Position numbers and translations under genes: made by a program
Virus record (IMG/VR): IMGVR_UViG_2917881069_000002
Span: 1-8,840 of that record
Origin: a virus
Taxonomy: Duplodnaviria > Heunggongvirae > Uroviricota > Caudoviricetes
DNA length: 8,840 nt
Reading direction: 5' to 3' (one strand)
Shown here: positions 1 to 6,300 of the stretch, piece by piece
Position numbering within the stretch: position 1 is the stretch's first letter
Layout: each line of letters opens with the position of its first letter
The notes under the pieces: generated by a model
Told to the model about the DNA's origin: nothing
Database searches by the model: none
What the model saw: only the letters and a program-made list of their open reading frames with translations

Positions 1-1038
1 TTAACGCTTATCCGCTACCAGTTTGAGCGCATGTTCCAGCACGTTAATGTCAGCGCCCGCTTTATGGGCATTTTCACTTAAATACCGCCGCCACTGCCGC
101 GCACCAGGAATCCCCTGGAACAGCCCCAGCATATGCCGGGTGATATGACCGAGATACGTCCCCTGGCTGAGTTCACGCTCAATGTACGGATACATAGCTC
201 GTACCACCGCCACCGGATCGGCATCGGTATCCGAGGAACCAAATATCTCTCGATCCACTGCCGCCAGAATGCCTGGGTTTTGATACGCTTCACGCCCGAC
301 CATCACGCCATCCATATGTTGCAGGTGTGCTTTAGCCTCTTCCAGCGACTTGATACCACCGTTAATTGACATAGCCAGATGCGGGAAATCACGCTTCAGT
401 TGATAGACGCGCGGGTAATCGAGCGGCGGGATCTCACGGTTTTCTTTTGGGCTTAAACCGGAGAGCCAGGCTTTACGCGCGTGGATGATAAACATCTCGC
501 ATTCGCCTTTGCCGGAAACGGTGTCGATAAAATCACAGAGAAATTCATAGCTGTCCTGGTCGTCAATGCCAATACGCGTTTTCACCGTCACTGGAATCGA
601 CACTACATCGCGCATCGCTTTTACGCAGTCAGCCACCAGTTGCGCATTCCCCATCAGGCACGCGCCAAACATGCCGTTCTGTACCCGGTCTGACGGGCAG
701 CCGACATTCAGGTTGATCTCATCATATCCGCGCGCTTCTGCCAGCTTCGCGCACTGCGCCAGCGCCGCCGGATCGCTACCGCCCAACTGTAACGCCACCG
801 GATGCTCTTCTTCACTGTATGCCAGGTAATCACCTTTACCGTGAATAATCGCCCCTGTGGTCACCATTTCGGTATAGAGCAACGTATTACGGGAGAGCAG
901 ACGCAGGAAATAACGGCAGTGTCTGTCCGTCCAGTCGAGCATAGGAGCAATGCTAAACCGAGAATTCCAGTAAACACCAGTTTTTTCAGGCATCACGCTG
1001 GTTTGATTAATTTTTTGTGTTTCATGATTATCGTGCAT
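1..1038 (-). CDS. dusA: tRNA-dihydrouridine synthase A (DusA), complete, 345 codons
   Basis: Minus-strand ORF with TAA stop at 1-3 and ATG at 1036-1038. Translation ([44 protein letters not shown] ... [21 protein letters not shown] ... ending ALKLVADKR) is recognisably enterobacterial DusA. No strong SD before the ATG at 1038; an in-frame ATG 45 nt downstream (MPEKTG...) is an alternative start. Confidence 0.95.
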
Positions 1039-1070
1039 TTTTGAACATTTCAGGCTATTTTTCTCGCGTT

Positions 1071-1106
1071 AGGTTCCCGCACAGGTTCCCACGTTTTATG
1101 GGAACC
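1071..1106. promoter_or_regulatory. Repeat cluster in the dusA-int divergent intergenic region: direct repeat AGGTTCCC (1071-1078, 1083-1090) and inverted repeat GGTTCCC-N9-GGGAACC (1084-1106)
   Basis: Read directly from the sequence aggttcccgcacaggttcccacgttttatgggaacc, 21 bp upstream of the int ATG. No T-tract on either side, so not an intrinsic terminator. Function (operator, integrase or accessory-factor site) is inference. Confidence 0.3.
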
Positions 1107-1126
1107 CGAAATAACGAGGTCGTGTA

Positions 1127-2224
1127 ATGGCGTACTATAACATAGAGAAACGACTAAAATCCGATGGCACACCACGCTATCGCTGTAATGTGATTATCAA
1201 AGAAAAAGGGGTTATCACTTACAGGGAAAGCAAAACATTCCCTAAACATGCTCATGCCAAAACATGGGGCACACAGAAAGTGATGGAATTAGATCTACAT
1301 GGCATTCCATCATCAAATGCTGTTGACGGGCTTACAGTCCGTGACTTACTACGCAAATATTTAAATGACCCAAATGCCGGAGGTAAAGCAGGCCGTACTA
1401 AAAGATATGTGCTGGAACTACTTATGGATAGTGACATTTCTGCGATCAGACTATCTGAATTAACAGAAAATGACGTAATAGAACATTGCAGGTTGAGAAA
1501 CAACGCCGGTGCAGGTCCAGCTACTGTTAGCCACGATGTTAGTTATCTTGGCAGTGTTCTGGATGCAGCCAAACCTGTATACGGAATTAATTACACATCA
1601 AACCCAGCAAAAGCCGCTCGTCCATATCTACTTAAACTTGGTTTAATTGGTAAATCAAATCGTCGTAATCGTAGACCAGCATCTGATGAACTAGACATGC
1701 TCATTGAAGGCCTTCAACAACGATCTACTCATAAATGCTCAAAAATTCCGTTCGTTGATATCCTCAAATTTTCTGTGTGGTCCTGTATGCGAATCGGAGA
1801 AGTATGCCGGTTACGATGGGAAGATCTCGACCAGGAACAAAAATCTATACTAGTAAGAGACAGGAAAGATCCACGTAAAAAGGAAGGTAACCATATGAAA
1901 GTGGCCTTGCTTGGGGAAGCCTGGGATATCGTCCAACGACAACCCAAAAAATCTGAATTCATTTTTCCATACAACAGCACTTCTGTTACCGCAGGATTTC
2001 AGAGGGTAAGAAGCAAATTAGGTATTAAAGATCTGCGATACCATGATTTGCGTAGAGAAGGGGCAAGTCGCTTATTTGAGGCTGGTTTTAGTATTGAGGA
2101 AGTCGCCCAGGTTACAGGGCATCGTTCATTAAACGTGCTATGGCAGGTATATACCGAACTGTATCCAAAATCTTTACATAATCGTTTTGAAGAACTCCAA
2201 AGGAGCAGAAATAAGACCTCTTGA
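1127..2224 (+). CDS. int: Phage tyrosine integrase (site-specific recombinase), dusA-associated type, 365 codons
   Basis: ATG at 1127 preceded by GAGG (1116-1119, 7-nt spacer). C-terminal catalytic region carries tyrosine-recombinase signature residues: Arg in CMRIGEVCRLRWEDL, H-x-x-R in YHDLRREGASRL, His in TGHRS and Tyr in LWQVYTELY. Divergent and 88 bp from dusA; lower GC than dusA. Confidence 0.92.
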   Translation: MAYYNIEKRLKSDGTPRYRCNVIIKEKGVITYRESKTFPKHAHAKTWGTQKVMELDLHGIPSSNAVDGLTVRDLLRKYLNDPNAGGKAGRTKRYVLELLMDSDISAIRLSELTENDVIEHCRLRNNAGAGPATVSHDVSYLGSVLDAAKPVYGINYTSNPAKAARPYLLKLGLIGKSNRRNRRPASDELDMLIEGLQQRSTHKCSKIPFVDILKFSVWSCMRIGEVCRLRWEDLDQEQKSILVRDRKDPRKKEGNHMKVALLGEAWDIVQRQPKKSEFIFPYNSTSVTAGFQRVRSKLGIKDLRYHDLRREGASRLFEAGFSIEEVAQVTGHRSLNVLWQVYTELYPKSLHNRFEELQRSRNKTS

Positions 2225-2272
2225 CACTGTTTATTCATACAGTTAAAAATAATACTGTATACAAACACAGTA
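2221..2272 (+). promoter_or_regulatory. SOS-regulated promoter: -35 TTGACA (2221-2226), -10 TAAAAT (2245-2250), two LexA boxes (CTGT-N8-ACAG) at 2225-2244 and 2253-2272
   Basis: Box 1 cACTGTttattcatACAGtt; box 2 taCTGTatacaaacACAGta, which differs from the consensus TACTGTATATATATACAGTA at only three central positions. The -35 overlaps the int stop codon (TGA 2222-2224). The GAGGGA RBS at 2275-2280 and dinI ATG at 2286 follow. Confidence 0.8.
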
Positions 2273-2285
2273 TAGAGGGATTTTT

Positions 2286-2534
2286 ATGCGTATTGAGATC
2301 TGCATAGCCAAAGAGAAAATGACTAAAATGCCAAACGGTGCTGTGGATGCGTTAAAGGAAGAATTAACTCGACGCATCAGTAAGCGTTATGACGATGTAG
2401 AGGTGATCGTAAAAGCCACCAGCAACGATGGCCTTTCTGTTACGCGCACCGCCGATAAAGATTCAGCTAAAACTTTTGTTCAGGAAACTCTGAAAGATAC
2501 CTGGGAGTCTGCTGACGAGTGGTTTGTTCATTAA
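2286..2534 (+). CDS. dinI: DinI-family (DNA-damage-inducible protein I-like) protein, 82 aa, prophage-encoded
   Basis: Translation [31 protein letters not shown] ... [10 protein letters not shown] ... [17 protein letters not shown] follows the E. coli DinI pattern as I recall it (MRIE..IAK...GA.DAL..EL.RRI...LSV...QETWESADDWFV; recalled, not verified). Good RBS and tandem LexA boxes immediately upstream. Confidence 0.88.
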
Positions 2535-2600
2535 TTAATACGTAAAATCGATAACGGCTGGAAATCATTCAATACTCGCACTATCGGAAGTTCACCAGCC

Positions 2601-2641
2601 AGCCGCAGTATTCTGCCATGACAAGTTGCTGCGGCTTTTTA
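2601..2641 (+). terminator. Putative rho-independent terminator downstream of dinI, between convergent genes
   Basis: Stem 2601-2610 (agccgcagta) pairs with 2627-2636 (tgctgcggct), 16-nt loop, followed by TTTTT (2636-2640). The long loop makes it weaker than a canonical terminator. No U-tract on the minus-strand side. Confidence 0.4.
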
Positions 2642-2644
2642 TGT

Positions 2645-2932
2645 TTAACGGATAAACAGCCAGACCAGCAGACACGCCACCACCGGCACAGCAAAATCCA
2701 TCAGACTTGCCATATCCCACACGCGCGGATCAAAACCACCCCACCACGGCATATTCATACGCTTGCCATGCCCGAACATTTCAATCCAGCGATATTCTGC
2801 CTGGGTATGTTCACGCGCAATGAAGAACGTACAACCGGCTATCGCTCCGTAAGCCCAGTTCCCGGTAAAAAGACCAACCAGTACCTGCGCAGCCACAGCA
2901 CAAAGTGCATGAAGGAAAGGTGTTATATCCAT
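2645..2932 (-). CDS. Small integral membrane protein (95 aa, 2-3 predicted TM helices), function unknown; candidate moron / superinfection-exclusion-type protein
   Basis: ATG at 2930-2932 preceded by AGGAGGAG (complement of 2934-2941), 10 bp after the stop of the upstream 227-aa gene. Hydrophobic segments FLHALCAVAAQVLVGLFTG, AYGAIAGCTFFIA and LMDFAVPVVACLLVWLFI. The opposing plus-strand 158-aa ORF (2618-3094) is His/Arg/Cys-rich junk with no RBS. Confidence 0.65.
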   Translation of the reverse strand: MDITPFLHALCAVAAQVLVGLFTGNWAYGAIAGCTFFIAREHTQAEYRWIEMFGHGKRMNMPWWGGFDPRVWDMASLMDFAVPVVACLLVWLFIR

Positions 2933-2942
2933 TACTCCTCCT

Positions 2943-3626
2943 TTATCCGATATCGCTTCGGGAAGTTGATAACAGCTTTAATTCTGACTCAAGTTCATCA
3001 ACTCTTTCTGTCAGTTTCTGGATATGGTGAATCAGTGGAACAACCAGACGTTCGTACATCACACCTTCGGCAACAAGGCCATTGCTGGAAATAGCTTCCG
3101 GTGCATCATCTTCGTTAGCTGGTCGCCAGTGTACAAACTGAGGGGCAATTTCTCCTACTTCCTCGGCAATCAATCCGTAGAATCCCCAGTCACGCCTGTC
3201 ATTTTCGCATTGCGACCTGTACCACACAGGGCGCATCTTGAAAATGAGATCGGCGTGCTCTGAATCTATCGTCTCTACTGAATGTTTATAGCGGATAGAC
3301 GATGTTGACCGCAGCACAGACGAAATTGCGGGGTCAGGATTAAGATAAAGGTTTGCCGCCGCTGTAGTCGTGCCCAATCCCCACAAATAAAACGCTTCAC
3401 GACCAGTCAGCGGGTAAAAATCTCCACCATAACGACCACTTTCCAGATCGTTCACTTCCACTTTGTTTTTCAGCTTATTATCAACTTCAGTTTTTGTGTA
3501 TCTGGAGCTGATATCCTGCTTTGCACTGGTCATCTCAGTCTGAAGCGTTGATACTTTTCCGTTAATTGAGGAAATATCTCCCTTTAGCTTGGTGATATCT
3601 CCTGGAATTACTGTCGATATAGCCAT
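2943..3626 (-). CDS. Tail-fibre-like protein: N-terminal coiled-coil plus C-terminal intramolecular chaperone (Peptidase S74 / endosialidase-chaperone type) domain, 227 aa
   Basis: ATG at 3624-3626 preceded by GGGAGA (TGA-GGGAGATAA-ATG). C-terminal half carries S74-type motifs: S109-S-I-R-Y-K114 (S-x-x-R-x-K, candidate autocleavage Ser/Lys dyad), MRPVWY, GLIAEEVGEIAPQFV, and a terminal helix PLIHHIQKLTERVDELESELKLL. N-terminal ITKLKGDISSINGKVSTLQTEMTSAKQDISSRYTKTEVDNKLKNKVEVNDL is heptad-like. Confidence 0.8.
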   Translation of the reverse strand: MAISTVIPGDITKLKGDISSINGKVSTLQTEMTSAKQDISSRYTKTEVDNKLKNKVEVNDLESGRYGGDFYPLTGREAFYLWGLGTTTAAANLYLNPDPAISSVLRSTSSIRYKHSVETIDSEHADLIFKMRPVWYRSQCENDRRDWGFYGLIAEEVGEIAPQFVHWRPANEDDAPEAISSNGLVAEGVMYERLVVPLIHHIQKLTERVDELESELKLLSTSRSDIG

Positions 3627-3635
3627 TTATCTCCC

Positions 3636-3917
3636 TCACATCCAGCCACGAAGTTGATGTTCAACTACAACCGCGTATTCATCGAATAATGACGATATTT
3701 GCGTATCATTAATGATGCGCACGTTTACAAAATATCCGTCTTCCTTAACACATACCGGATCGCCATCTTCAGTAAGTTCTCCGGTTTCTTTGTACACGTT
3801 ACCTATCACGTCAATGAGAATATCATCCTGCATCGACTCGTCATCATAATAGCCGATACTCTCCATAAAGGCCGAAAAGTCGGCTCTGTCGGCAAATTTG
3901 AGTGTTAAATCTTTCAT
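3636..3917 (-). CDS. Highly acidic 93-aa protein of unknown function, translationally coupled to the side tail fibre gene
   Basis: ATG at 3915-3917 overlaps the fibre stop (ATGA) and is preceded by GGGGAGAG inside the fibre 3' end. About 28% Asp+Glu with very few basic residues; no signal peptide or TM segment. Does not resemble lambda Tfa-type assembly proteins by eye. Confidence 0.65.
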   Translation of the reverse strand: MKDLTLKFADRADFSAFMESIGYYDDESMQDDILIDVIGNVYKETGELTEDGDPVCVKEDGYFVNVRIINDTQISSLFDEYAVVVEHQLRGWM

Positions 3918-6289
3918 TTAATACTCTCCCCGATTTGCGCATCAGTTAATTCTTTATGCCATATTCTGAAATTTCTAATATGACCGAATAAGTGACGTTC
4001 ACCCGTTGAAGTTTGCCCACCAAAACGAATGCTTGTATTCTTAGTTACATATCTCCACGCGGTTTTTTTAGGAACACTAGGAGGAATATCACCATTCAAA
4101 ACAATATGAACACCATAATCTTTAGTAATTCTAAATCCAGCAACGAACTTTCTCTCTTTCGTTACCAGGTAACTATTAACGCGTCCAGCATCTGCACCAA
4201 CATCAATATAAGGGCTACCAGTATTTGCGGCAGTACCGCCACGGCAACCAAAAATAACGGCCTGGCCAGTTGGCACACCGGAAAAATCCATTATACGTGG
4301 TGCTGCATTAGGAGGAAGTTCCCATTCCCAATTTCGATGAACTTCGGCTAAAACTGTAATAGGTGCGTCATACATATTATTCTTAACAGGAATGTTAACC
4401 AAATCACTAGCGCGGGTAGCTGGTACGTCGTTAGTTATGATTAATGATGTTGCATGAGAACATTTCTCTACCTGAGCGGTTGCCGCCTTTATGTAATTTC
4501 CTGCGACCAATTCGCCGCCACTTTTAGCAAGCATTTCAGTACGAGCATAAACGCTCATATCTTCGGTGGCTTTAAATGTCGATTGGAAAAAATACCATCC
4601 ACTAGCAGGATCATAATCAACGCGACTAGACAAAACATCACTAACTAGTTTAGCGGTATCAAGATCCAACATAGCATCAGCAATAAATGTGTTTCCGTTC
4701 CCGTCATCATTTAATTTTGAAATACGATGGCGAGCGCGACAACCAGCCCCCTTAACACGAATAGATATAGTAACATATTCACCACCAACAACTGGAATCA
4801 CACGGGATGTCCCAGTAGAAATCAACGTAACTGGCCCAGTGTCGGATGATTCTTTATAAGTGAATGTTGCTTGAGTAAAACCAAATTCATCAATAGAGTT
4901 TTCACTAACAGATAAACGGTTTGTATTTCTGTTCCAGTTCGCTGGTGAGTTACTATTAATAAAGTTATTAGTCGTAGTACCTTCAATCAACAAACCATTT
5001 TTTTCGAAGCGTGGTTCGTCAATTGCAGCCTCCGTCAGTACACCAGATTTGTTAATGTAGGTTGCTTTCGATGCGCGTTTAAACTTTACAACCTTATCGC
5101 CAGGCATTGTTATTTCATCATCACCAATAACAATCTTTTTATATGATGGCGAAAAGCCCGTAATCATATCCAGTGAATCGTTAAACGGTATCCACACATC
5201 GGGAAGCGGCTGCAAAACTTGTTTATACGGCTCCGCAGCCTGGCTTGCATACTCTCTGGCTGCGTCTTCACTTGCTTTTGCAGCCGTCTGGCTTGCAGCG
5301 GATGCTTTCGCCGAGTTAGCCGCCGCAGTCTCGCTCGCCTTTGCGTTGGTTTCACTGGTTTTTGCAGCTTTTTGACTGTTGGCTGATGCAGTGGCAGAAG
5401 AAGCCGCCGCACTTGCAGAACCAGCTGCGGCACTCTCGCTTTGGGCTGCTGCATCCTGACTGTTTTTCGCCGCAGTTTCGCTGGCTTTGGCATTCGTTTC
5501 GCTGGTCTTCGCTGCCGTCTGGCTGGACTTTGCGTTAGTTTCACTCGTCTTCGCAGCTTTCTGGCTGTTAGCCGCAGCAGTTGCTGATCCAGCTGCTGAA
5601 GTCGCAGAACCGGCTGCAGCACTCTCGCTTTCGGCTGCTGCAGCCTGACTGCTTTTCGCCGCAGTTTCACTGGTTTTGGCATTCGTTTCGCTTGTTTTCG
5701 CTGCCGTCTGGCTGGACTTTGCGTTAGTTTCGCTCGTCTTTGCGGCTGTCTCGCTGTTTTTCGCATTGGTTTCTGATTTTTTGGCTGCTGTCGCGGAGTT
5801 TGCCGATGCAGTCTGTGAGGCCGCTGCCGCCTGTGCGCTGTTAGCTGCATTCGTTTCTGAGGTTTTCGCCGCGTTCTTCGATGATGCCGCTGCAGTTTCG
5901 GATTTCTTTGCCGCCGCTGCGCTCTGAGAGGCGGCTTCGGCGTTGCGTGCCGCTTCTTCCACCATTTCCTCAAAACGACGCAATGCCTCCGGCATGACGT
6001 CCTCTTCCGTCATGGCACCGAGAAAATCATTCAGCGTACCTGGTCTGGAACCTTCATAGACGGTAATGGTCCCGGCATGTGAAGGCGGAAAACCTTCAAC
6101 CAGCAGGGTGACGCTGTACTGGCCATACTCAACATCCATACTGTAACGCCCGGCTTCATCCGGATTTTCAGATGCCACCGTGTTCACCAGTACCGTGGTG
6201 CTGTTACGCTTTGCCTTCAGTTGAATAGTGCAGTTCTGTATTGGTTTTCCCGCACCATCTTTCAGCACACCTGAAATCTGTACTGCCAT
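3914..6289 (-). CDS. stf: Side tail fibre protein (lambda Stf-like N-terminal domain, Ala/Ser/Thr-rich repeat shaft, distinct C-terminal jelly-roll/LamG-like putative receptor-binding domain)
   Basis: Start taken as ATG 6287-6289 (GGAG 5 nt upstream); the track start at 6295 is a GTG inside the SD. N-terminus MAVQISGVLKDGAGKPIQNCTIQLKAKRNSTTV ... EAGRYSMDVEYGQYSV ... GFPPSHAGTITVYE matches the lambda Stf N-terminal domain as I recall it. C-terminal ~400 aa are AT-rich DNA, starting EPRFEKNGLLIEGTTTNNF and ending RFGGQTSTGERHLFGHIRNFRIWHKELTDAQIGESIK. Confidence 0.9.
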   Translation of the reverse strand: MAVQISGVLKDGAGKPIQNCTIQLKAKRNSTTVLVNTVASENPDEAGRYSMDVEYGQYSVTLLVEGFPPSHAGTITVYEGSRPGTLNDFLGAMTEEDVMPEALRRFEEMVEEAARNAEAASQSAAAAKKSETAAASSKNAAKTSETNAANSAQAAAASQTASANSATAAKKSETNAKNSETAAKTSETNAKSSQTAAKTSETNAKTSETAAKSSQAAAAESESAAAGSATSAAGSATAAANSQKAAKTSETNAKSSQTAAKTSETNAKASETAAKNSQDAAAQSESAAAGSASAAASSATASANSQKAAKTSETNAKASETAAANSAKASAASQTAAKASEDAAREYASQAAEPYKQVLQPLPDVWIPFNDSLDMITGFSPSYKKIVIGDDEITMPGDKVVKFKRASKATYINKSGVLTEAAIDEPRFEKNGLLIEGTTTNNFINSNSPANWNRNTNRLSVSENSIDEFGFTQATFTYKESSDTGPVTLISTGTSRVIPVVGGEYVTISIRVKGAGCRARHRISKLNDDGNGNTFIADAMLDLDTAKLVSDVLSSRVDYDPASGWYFFQSTFKATEDMSVYARTEMLAKSGGELVAGNYIKAATAQVEKCSHATSLIITNDVPATRASDLVNIPVKNNMYDAPITVLAEVHRNWEWELPPNAAPRIMDFSGVPTGQAVIFGCRGGTAANTGSPYIDVGADAGRVNSYLVTKERKFVAGFRITKDYGVHIVLNGDIPPSVPKKTAWRYVTKNTSIRFGGQTSTGERHLFGHIRNFRIWHKELTDAQIGESIK
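5341..5760 (-). repeat. In-frame tandem duplication, period 189 bp (63 aa), about 2.2 copies, containing 42-bp (14-aa AAKTSETNAKSSQT-like) sub-repeats, within the stf shaft
   Basis: Copy at about 5425-5556 is near-identical to 5614-5745 (offset 189 bp); unit starts at about 5341, 5530 and 5719 (partial). Encodes the repeated block AAKTSETNAK(S/A)S(Q/E)TAAK..SESAAAGSA...ANSQK. Confidence 0.75.
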
Positions 6290-6300
6290 ACTCACTCCAC

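Follow-up and report, generated by a model that had tools for sequence, protein, structure and literature searches.

Tandem LexA boxes at the promoter of a DinI-like gene point to a LexA-repressed, SOS-induced moron in an mEp460-like prophage at dusA of Escherichia coli

A stretch of 8,840 nucleotides (the window, meaning this whole stretch at its full length) was found to consist of E. coli chromosome with a prophage end. The gene adjoining the prophage integrase is best explained, with considerable confidence, as a LexA-repressed, SOS-induced DinI moron in an mEp460-like prophage at dusA, and the SOS control by tandem LexA boxes claimed for this gene in the original prediction is very likely on the evidence of the sequence. 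The evidence consists of the observed anatomy of the locus (Table 1), the strength of its two LexA-type sites, their conservation among diverged homologues and the modular mobility of the gene with its promoter.

The prophage in the window can be identified as an mEp460-like lambdoid prophage of E. coli sitting in dusA. The tyrosine integrase (Pfam Phage_integrase, E=1e-20; also matched by PHROG integrase families) adjoins dusA likewise in E. coli 201609 and ST648; a dusA-associated integrase family has been described, and such elements insert at the 5' end of dusA (PMC4482086). Positions 1040-2700 matched E. coli strain 201609 at 100% identity, many other clinical strains at 99.9% and lambdoid phage mEp460 and its relatives, Stx2k and Stx2d phages among them, at approximately 95%; no match covering at least 80% of the whole window was found in the complete-genome set. 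The mEp460 genome runs from the side tail fibre through the DinI-like gene and int, both on the opposite strand, to the attP region, and the adjacency of int and tail-fibre genes in the prophage follows from this order, which places attP beyond int. The DinI-like gene accordingly sits between int and the tail-fibre genes and its transcription opposes the latter; the convergent tail genes 3' of it encode a 95-aa protein, a fibre with an S74-chaperone domain, a side tail fibre and J.

Close relatives of the prophage in the window are either intact (a 39-kb prophage at dusA in ST648) or truncated (201609). In strain 201609, IS100 has reduced the prophage to int, dinI, head and tail genes and part of a terminase; its whole regulatory half is gone and it has neither repressor nor lysis genes, while the int-dinI region of this remnant is 100% identical to the window. 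The related intact phages (mEp460 and the ST648 prophage) carry a repressor of the S24 (LexA/CI) type that RecA presumably cleaves. It was also observed that they encode, in the early-right operon, a protein of 108-109 aa that consists only of a LexA N-terminal domain (mEp460_046; ST648 FH07_RS01790). This protein shares 43% identity with the LexA DNA-binding domain, keeps most of the recognition helix and is without the S24 cleavage domain; its gene lies outside the window.

The predicted product of 82 amino acids, protein WP_001217539, can be regarded as a genuine DinI homologue, and its length fits the family's size of about 80 aa. It matched Pfam PF06183 over profile positions 1-63 of 63 (E=1.2e-19; 70.8 bits versus a cut-off of 24.2), PHROG 189 ('RecA filament binding protein DinI', E=4e-31) and the DinI structures PDB 1GHH/7YWA (E=8e-13), and was 46% identical to K-12 DinI from end to end. 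The alignment of homologues indicated a reading frame clearly under protein-level constraint, and the C-terminal WE.AD.WF motif was invariant (positions 73, E74, A76, D77, W79 and F80) among 11 homologues, enterobacterial relatives and K-12 DinI included. The acidic C-terminal helix of DinI reportedly contacts RecA, an established role described by Voloshin et al. in 2001 (cited in PMC3121763). Longer database proteins labelled DinI-like (108-122 aa) were uninformative, as they represent internal duplications, extensions by frameshift or stop read-through, or a divergent C-terminal tail.

Table 1. Features of the dusA-integrase-dinI region, in coordinates of the 8,840-nt window
Feature	Position	Strand	Basis or remark
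dusA, 5' part	1-1038	-	
Tyrosine integrase, dusA-targeting type	1127-2224	+	ORF; Pfam; PHROG; dusA adjacency
-35 hexamer TTGACA	2221-2226	+	Promoter scan; mEp460 GenBank annotation; doubles as the cassette's upstream mosaic boundary
Putative LexA box 1, CACTGTTTATTCATACAGTT	2225-2244 (core 2227-2242)	.	Pattern search; HI-type score 5.5
Alternative -10 TAAAAA, 17-nt spacer	2244-2249	+	mEp460 GenBank annotation
Probable -10 AAAAAT, 18-nt spacer	2245-2250	+	Promoter scan
Putative LexA box 2, TACTGTATACAAACACAGTA	2253-2272 (core 2255-2270)	.	Pattern search; HI-type score 2.8
Shine-Dalgarno-like AGAGGGA, 5 nt before ATG	2274-2280	+	Sequence read; purine-rich block conserved in alignments
dinI-like gene, 82 aa	2286-2534	+	Pfam; PHROG; K-12 DinI alignment; PDB match
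Conserved 3'UTR	2535-2600	+	Alignments; stem GGCTGG (2556-2561)/CCAGCC (2595-2600)
Terminator-like hairpin and T-run	2601-2641 (hairpin 2601-2636, T-run 2636-2640)	+	RNA fold; covariation; downstream boundary of the cassette

When both strands of all 8840 bases were searched, the pattern CTGT-N8-ACAG occurred exactly twice (CTGTTTATTCATACAG at 2227-2242 and CTGTATACAAACACAG at 2255-2270), and a reading of the sequence together with the pattern search placed the surrounding 20-mers exactly where the original prediction had put its two sites. Both match the E. coli-type SOS-box core exactly, within a 20-bp site that resembles TACTGTATATATATACAGTA. By chance 0.10 such patterns would be expected per window, and two or more were seen in 1 of 200 shuffles. 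The sites were also scored with a matrix of the heterology-index (HI) type (Berg-von Hippel/Lewis formula) built on 18 E. coli K-12 LexA boxes (PMC3009722, table 4), which yields scores from a re-derived matrix and not the original values of Lewis et al. 1994. The known K-12 boxes, each left out of the matrix in turn, scored 0.6-12.6, a range of proven operators that takes in both box 2 (2.8) and box 1 (5.5). Box 2 was the best site of the window, and after the two boxes the next-best 20-mer scored 13.2; a site of 5.6 or below was found in none of 300 shuffles of the window. In a control search of 49.5 kb of E. coli ST648 chromosome, which holds lexA and the prophage end, only the two lexA operators and these two boxes scored 8.5 or below. 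Two further strong LexA-type sites were seen in mEp460, one of them within the repressor gene.

A promoter scan identified TTGACA-18-AAAAAT (10 of 12 consensus matches) over the two boxes, and the GenBank record of mEp460 annotates TTGACA-N17-TAAAAA at the same place, without LexA boxes; the -10 hexamer is weak in either form. As had been predicted, this sigma-70-like promoter holds the int stop codon in its -35 hexamer: the integrase ORF ends at 2224 and TTGACA spans 2221-2226, so the TGA (2222-2224) falls within it. Box 1 occupies the spacer between the -35 and -10 hexamers and touches both, while box 2 starts three bases past the -10 and stops 13 nt short of the ATG, with the AGAGGGA close behind it. 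Transcription would start near 2257, inside box 2, and a LexA dimer at either box should exclude RNA polymerase. The centres of the boxes are 28 bp apart.

Conservation of the boxes was assessed in two sets of homologues. A scan of genome contigs with the single protein returned only four near-identical loci, and diversity was instead drawn from an alignment-based scan of viral contigs, which reached dinI-like genes with as little as 50% protein identity. The 66 near-identical copies collected from viral contigs and genomes had 30 distinct upstream sequences, representing at least five unrelated contexts (a dusA-type int, a terminator-like GC stem with a T-run, two different flanks with GCCCCAT repeats, and one other). 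Both boxes were kept in every one of these contexts, with homology beginning at the -35, and most of the variation among the copies fell inside the N8 spacers or in the stretch separating the boxes. BLAST matches in many phages (Stx2c phages, 2H10, CP-1639, PhiR63_1) likewise begin at window positions 2220-2222.

Among 27 readable diverged loci (50-82% protein identity), 16 had two boxes, lying 39-42 and 12-16 nt before the ATG. A single box 14-19 nt before the ATG was found at 10 loci, including a Gifsy-like class with one near-perfect box (score 0.7) 19 nt before the ATG, and the distal box alone was found at the remaining locus, a decayed copy. A box in the position of box 1 (39-42 nt before the ATG) recurs in DinI-like genes of 56-82% protein identity, and a box in the position of box 2 lies 12-19 nt before the ATG in homologues. 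An alignment of 24 diverged two-box sequences showed no change in the ACTG and CA columns of box 1 or in the CTGT and CAG columns of box 2, and at least 90% conservation of the last G in box 1; the -35 was conserved only to that level (as TTGA, at least 90%) and the ribosome-binding site less. The CTG/CAG half-sites were thus the most conserved columns upstream of the gene, above both the -35 and the ribosome-binding site. The A-rich block between the boxes was also conserved in alignments. The distance between box centres ranged from 24 to 29 bp among homologues; because it is variable, there is no support for two LexA dimers binding cooperatively in a fixed helical phase. The variation argues for boxes positioned by reference to the promoter and not to one another, and each may act independently. 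Taken together, the strength of the sites and their persistence in diverged homologues with unrelated flanks are strong arguments for functional LexA operators at both boxes.

The region 2221-2641, which comprises the promoter, the two boxes, the gene, the 3'UTR and the terminator hairpin, can be read as a self-contained mobile unit, that is, a moron, because its boundaries are sharp at the -35 and just after the hairpin and its flanks are unrelated. It has its own promoter and its own terminator, and only some relatives carry it. The 3'UTR of approximately 70 nt and the hairpin are common to the copies, and homology to at least 12 different neighbours stops just past the hairpin. With the cassette as query, matches were obtained in 3379 of 5426 complete E. 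coli genomes (approximately 62%); matches covering at least 80% of the cassette were present in 1512 of the 5426 (28%), and there were as many as 8 places in a single genome. The 3'UTR was conserved as well as the coding sequence in homologues of 69-77% nucleotide identity, and its stem encloses an invariant 21-nt core, CATTCAATACTCGCACTATCG (2566-2586). The hairpin had an RNA fold z of -2.98, and in an alignment of 18 3'UTR sequences seven predicted pairs, six of them in the hairpin, were maintained through changes on both sides; some hairpin variants were without the T-run. No plus-strand ORF of 20 aa or more was found in the interval from the dinI stop (2534) to the hairpin (2601-2636). A Gifsy-like antirepressor gene 3' of dinI is thereby ruled out, and the cassette does not belong to the class of Gifsy-type dinI-antirepressor operons.

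The palindromes could be chance products or relics without LexA function, with the gene expressed constitutively or by read-through from int, as the AT-rich centre of an SOS box can be mimicked by promoter regions of similar composition. This was considered extremely improbable, given the chance expectation and the shuffles reported above, scores like those of proven operators at both sites, and half-sites that do not vary although the bases around them and the flanks do. It is also very unlikely that the boxes serve mainly int, with LexA as a roadblock or as a control on its 3' end (or on an antisense promoter), which would couple integration and excision to the SOS response and leave the regulation of dinI secondary. 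The int stop does lie inside the -35, and since there is no terminator between int and dinI, transcription of int must run into the LexA-occupied operators. However, the promoter and boxes travel with dinI and not with int, at least four other unrelated sequences being found upstream, homology starts exactly at the -35, and the promoter scan found no minus-strand promoter at the locus.

An RNA could be the key product instead of, or besides, the protein, as a small RNA derived from the 3'UTR (2535-2641) by analogy with DinR, for which the DinR of Klebsiella dinI is a precedent (PMC10907235). The conservation of the 3'UTR at the level of the coding sequence, the invariant core in its stem-loop and the compensatory changes that keep the hairpin 3' of the core paired would all fit such an RNA. 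Against it, no Rfam family was matched in positions 1000-3000, the 3'UTR included, several variants are without the U-tail expected of Hfq-dependent small RNAs, and the DinI frame is clearly constrained at the protein level. The 3'UTR element was also observed at other prophage ends that have no dinI, a distribution pointing instead to a junction or terminator module. A DinR-like small RNA acting on ftsZ was tried as a candidate and rejected, as its duplex energy with the start region of E. coli ftsZ was no better than that of shuffled sequences. On balance an RNA product was judged unlikely. In E. coli K1 RS218, sRNA-17 is reported to lie in an mEp460-like prophage (PMC7719688).

A LexA-repressed dinI-like gene that encodes a DinI protein, the preferred reading, was compared with known systems. 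The chromosomal dinI of K-12 belongs to the same family and likewise has a LexA box (ACCTGTATAAATAACCAGTA) overlapping the promoter just upstream; there, a TTGTCA -35 is followed by a single box which contains the -10 and ends 19 nt before the ATG, whereas the prophage gene has a consensus TTGACA, two boxes bracketing the -10 and a different 3'UTR, and lies on mobile DNA. The lexA gene resembles the locus in having more than one box on its promoter, one lying within or close to the -35/-10 spacer and the other covering the start site, but its boxes are 21 bp apart from centre to centre, a shorter distance than the one in the window or any among the homologues. recN has three LexA boxes and the colicin genes have two. 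By analogy with such genes, a multi-box layout should make repression tight and the response steep.

Among prophage genes, the dinI homologues of Gifsy-1, -2 and -3 are LexA-boxed and their product is damage-induced (PMC3121763). In a genome-wide study of Salmonella each had one box 19 nt from the ATG (HI 3.9-5.3) and was induced 4.6- to 23-fold by nalidixic acid (PMC8072944); induction by mitomycin or nalidixic acid has been described (PMC3121763; PMC8072944). The Gifsy dinI heads an operon with a prophage-inducing antirepressor, and non-polar deletions of dinI left induction unchanged (PMC3121763). The gene in the window is alike in being a prophage-borne DinI homologue whose own promoter is overlapped by a strong LexA box near the ATG. 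It differs in having two boxes instead of one and in its surroundings: the Gifsy gene shares its operon with the antirepressor (gfoA/gftA) and irsA near replication genes, whereas here no further gene would fit downstream, the UTR of approximately 105 nt up to the hairpin holding no ORF, and the intact relatives of this prophage use a cleavable S24 repressor and not an antirepressor.

In Serratia phage OS31 a DinI-like gene that lies opposite tail genes has a LexA box 14 bp before it, and PhiKO2 (in which the dinI-like gene is reported to be LexA-regulated), 186, Gifsy and Fels-2 are cited as further cases (PMC7556043). PhiKO2, OS31 and the tum gene of 186 are thus similar to the gene in the window as DinI-like genes of temperate phages with a LexA box a few nt upstream (PMC7556043, PMC3121763), and in OS31 the gene lies 3' of the tail cluster in opposite orientation, as it does here. 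They differ in that one box is reported for each, in their hosts and genome types (a linear plasmid prophage, a P2-like phage) and, in the case of Tum of 186, in being a fusion of an antirepressor with a DinI domain. At the Klebsiella dinI promoter, LexA occupancy has been detected by ChIP (PMC10907235).

A mechanism can be proposed in which LexA binding, induction by DNA damage, the transcription start site and the interaction with RecA are predicted from sequence. In an undamaged cell, host LexA dimers would sit on box 1 in the promoter spacer and on box 2 over the start site, and with both occupied the binding of RNA polymerase and initiation would be blocked, giving tight repression. Upon DNA damage, RecA filaments would form and LexA would cleave itself, both operators would be vacated and the promoter, with its consensus -35, would fire. 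The 82-aa DinI-like protein would then engage RecA filaments via its acidic C-terminal helix, like E. coli DinI, and modulate filament stability and co-protease activity. The regulatory part of this proposal, tight repression by LexA at two independent operators and derepression by damage, is highly probable, while any specific physiological benefit is put forward with much lower confidence.

The beneficiary may be the phage, through the timing of cleavage of a CI-type repressor, or the host, through an extra dose of DinI. As the related phages have a repressor with an S24 peptidase, their induction presumably depends on RecA filaments, and a LexA-controlled RecA modulator could plausibly shape the signal that triggers induction, as was suggested in the original prediction, which offered a fitness moron as the other possibility. 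The 201609 remnant and the Gifsy deletion result weigh against a strictly phage-centred role. A further and doubtful suggestion is that the tandem boxes are read in turn, by host LexA in the lysogen and, after induction, by the uncleavable LexA look-alike encoded by related phages. If this were true, the look-alike could, after the destruction of host LexA, re-occupy the boxes together with the SOS boxes of the host, again silencing dinI and the SOS regulon during lytic growth.

Control of phage dinI genes by LexA is already known from Gifsy-1/2/3, PhiKO2 and 186 tum, and in this respect the locus is ordinary and well supported; it leaves current concepts unchanged. The searchable literature yielded no account of the two-operator layout seen in the E. 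coli lambdoid class, and the layout represents a small variation. The locus provides a clean and widespread example of a phage gene wired into the SOS network of its host. The cassette is often multicopy, and prophage load may raise the dose of a RecA modulator exactly upon DNA damage. Such a higher dose could bear on SOS dynamics, on mutagenesis and on the timing of prophage induction, that of Stx phages included, under antibiotics. The two-operator design, conserved in diverged phage dinI genes, would offer a convenient natural test case for the relation between operator number and the threshold of repression.

Conservation of the 3' untranslated region of the dinI-like gene was found, on comparison with diverged homologues, to equal that of the coding sequence. 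The region contains an invariant 21-nt core, CATTCAATACTCGCACTATCG, enclosed by a GGCTGG/CCAGCC stem, and downstream of this stem lies a hairpin whose pairing is preserved among the homologues via compensatory changes. A search of this region against Rfam matched no family and no pairing with ftsZ was found for it; it is reminiscent of DinR, the dinI-derived sRNA of Klebsiella (PMC10907235). The element was also identified without any dinI gene at two E. coli loci, lying in E24377A between ybhB and a diguanylate-cyclase moron, near tail-fibre assembly genes, and in MLI023K1 directly downstream of intS, a prophage integrase gene. It looks like an independent junction/terminator module at the ends of lambdoid prophages. 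With regard to the coding sequence, some of the proteins entered in databases as 'DinI-like', 108-112 aa in length (P0001-P0003), were found to be internal tandem duplications, of 26-30 residues, in the same gene; either genuine variation or faulty assembly may account for them.

The insertion point of the prophage is the 5' end of dusA. Next to the integrase end, the dusA reading frame is full-length (345 aa), and in E. coli ST648 the opposite end of the intact prophage is marked by a short leftover fragment annotated as 'tRNA-dihydrouridine synthase, missing C-terminus'. Integrases which target dusA supply a replacement 5' end of the gene (PMC4482086), and the full-length copy together with the leftover fragment match this pattern, as expected. 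E. coli 201609 has an int-dinI region that matches window bases 1040-2700 with 100% identity. What this strain carries is a prophage remnant: the large terminase gene is truncated beside IS100, and defence genes (Zorya type II, a Wadjet JetD protein and a phosphorothioate-dependent restriction enzyme) have taken the place of the genes for regulation, replication and lysis. At the equivalent site, ST648 carries its intact prophage of approximately 39 kb.

In the tail region of the window, an S74-chaperone tail-fibre gene is flanked by two small conserved phage ORFs, neither of which gave a match when searched against Pfam. The side tail fibre protein has a long, strongly repetitive stretch rich in Ala, Ser, Thr and Lys (KTSETNAK-type repeats), which is probably the reason for the fragmented coverage of the whole window by BLAST.

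Location of features in the window and in related loci (a lower LexA-type score is stronger)
Feature	Location	Strand	Details
dusA end of the prophage	window 1-1126		
dinI-like 3'UTR element	window 2535-2641		comparison with diverged homologues
Invariant core	window 2566-2586		
Small ORF	window 2645-2932	minus	95 aa, hydrophobic, PHROG 1443
Small ORF	window 3636-3917	minus	93 aa, PHROG 1361
Side tail fibre protein	window 3914-6295	minus	793 aa
3' element, E24377A	L170 3001-3101		
3' element, MLI023K1	L171 3001-3067		
Remnant prophage, 201609	L172 22718-26094		
Leftover dusA fragment, ST648	L173 8866-8970		
LexA-DNA-binding-domain protein	L088 36425-36751 (mEp460); L173 17669-17995 (ST648 dusA prophage)		108-109 aa, PF01726, E=3e-19
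LexA-type site TACTGTTTTTACATACAGTA	L088 31970-31989		score 2.1, within S24 repressor gene mEp460_038
LexA-type site TACTGTAAAAATAAACAGTG	L088 41021-41040		score 5.3, first codons of DNA methylase gene mEp460_053

Two more strong predicted LexA-type sites were identified in the related phage mEp460. Both mEp460 and the ST648 prophage, as related intact phages, also encode, from a gene that lies outside the window, a protein which consists solely of a LexA DNA-binding domain. Against host LexA (residues 1-86) the protein shows 43% identity, a match that takes in most of the recognition helix; it lacks the S24 self-cleavage domain. This phage protein could be an uncleavable mimic of LexA at SOS boxes.
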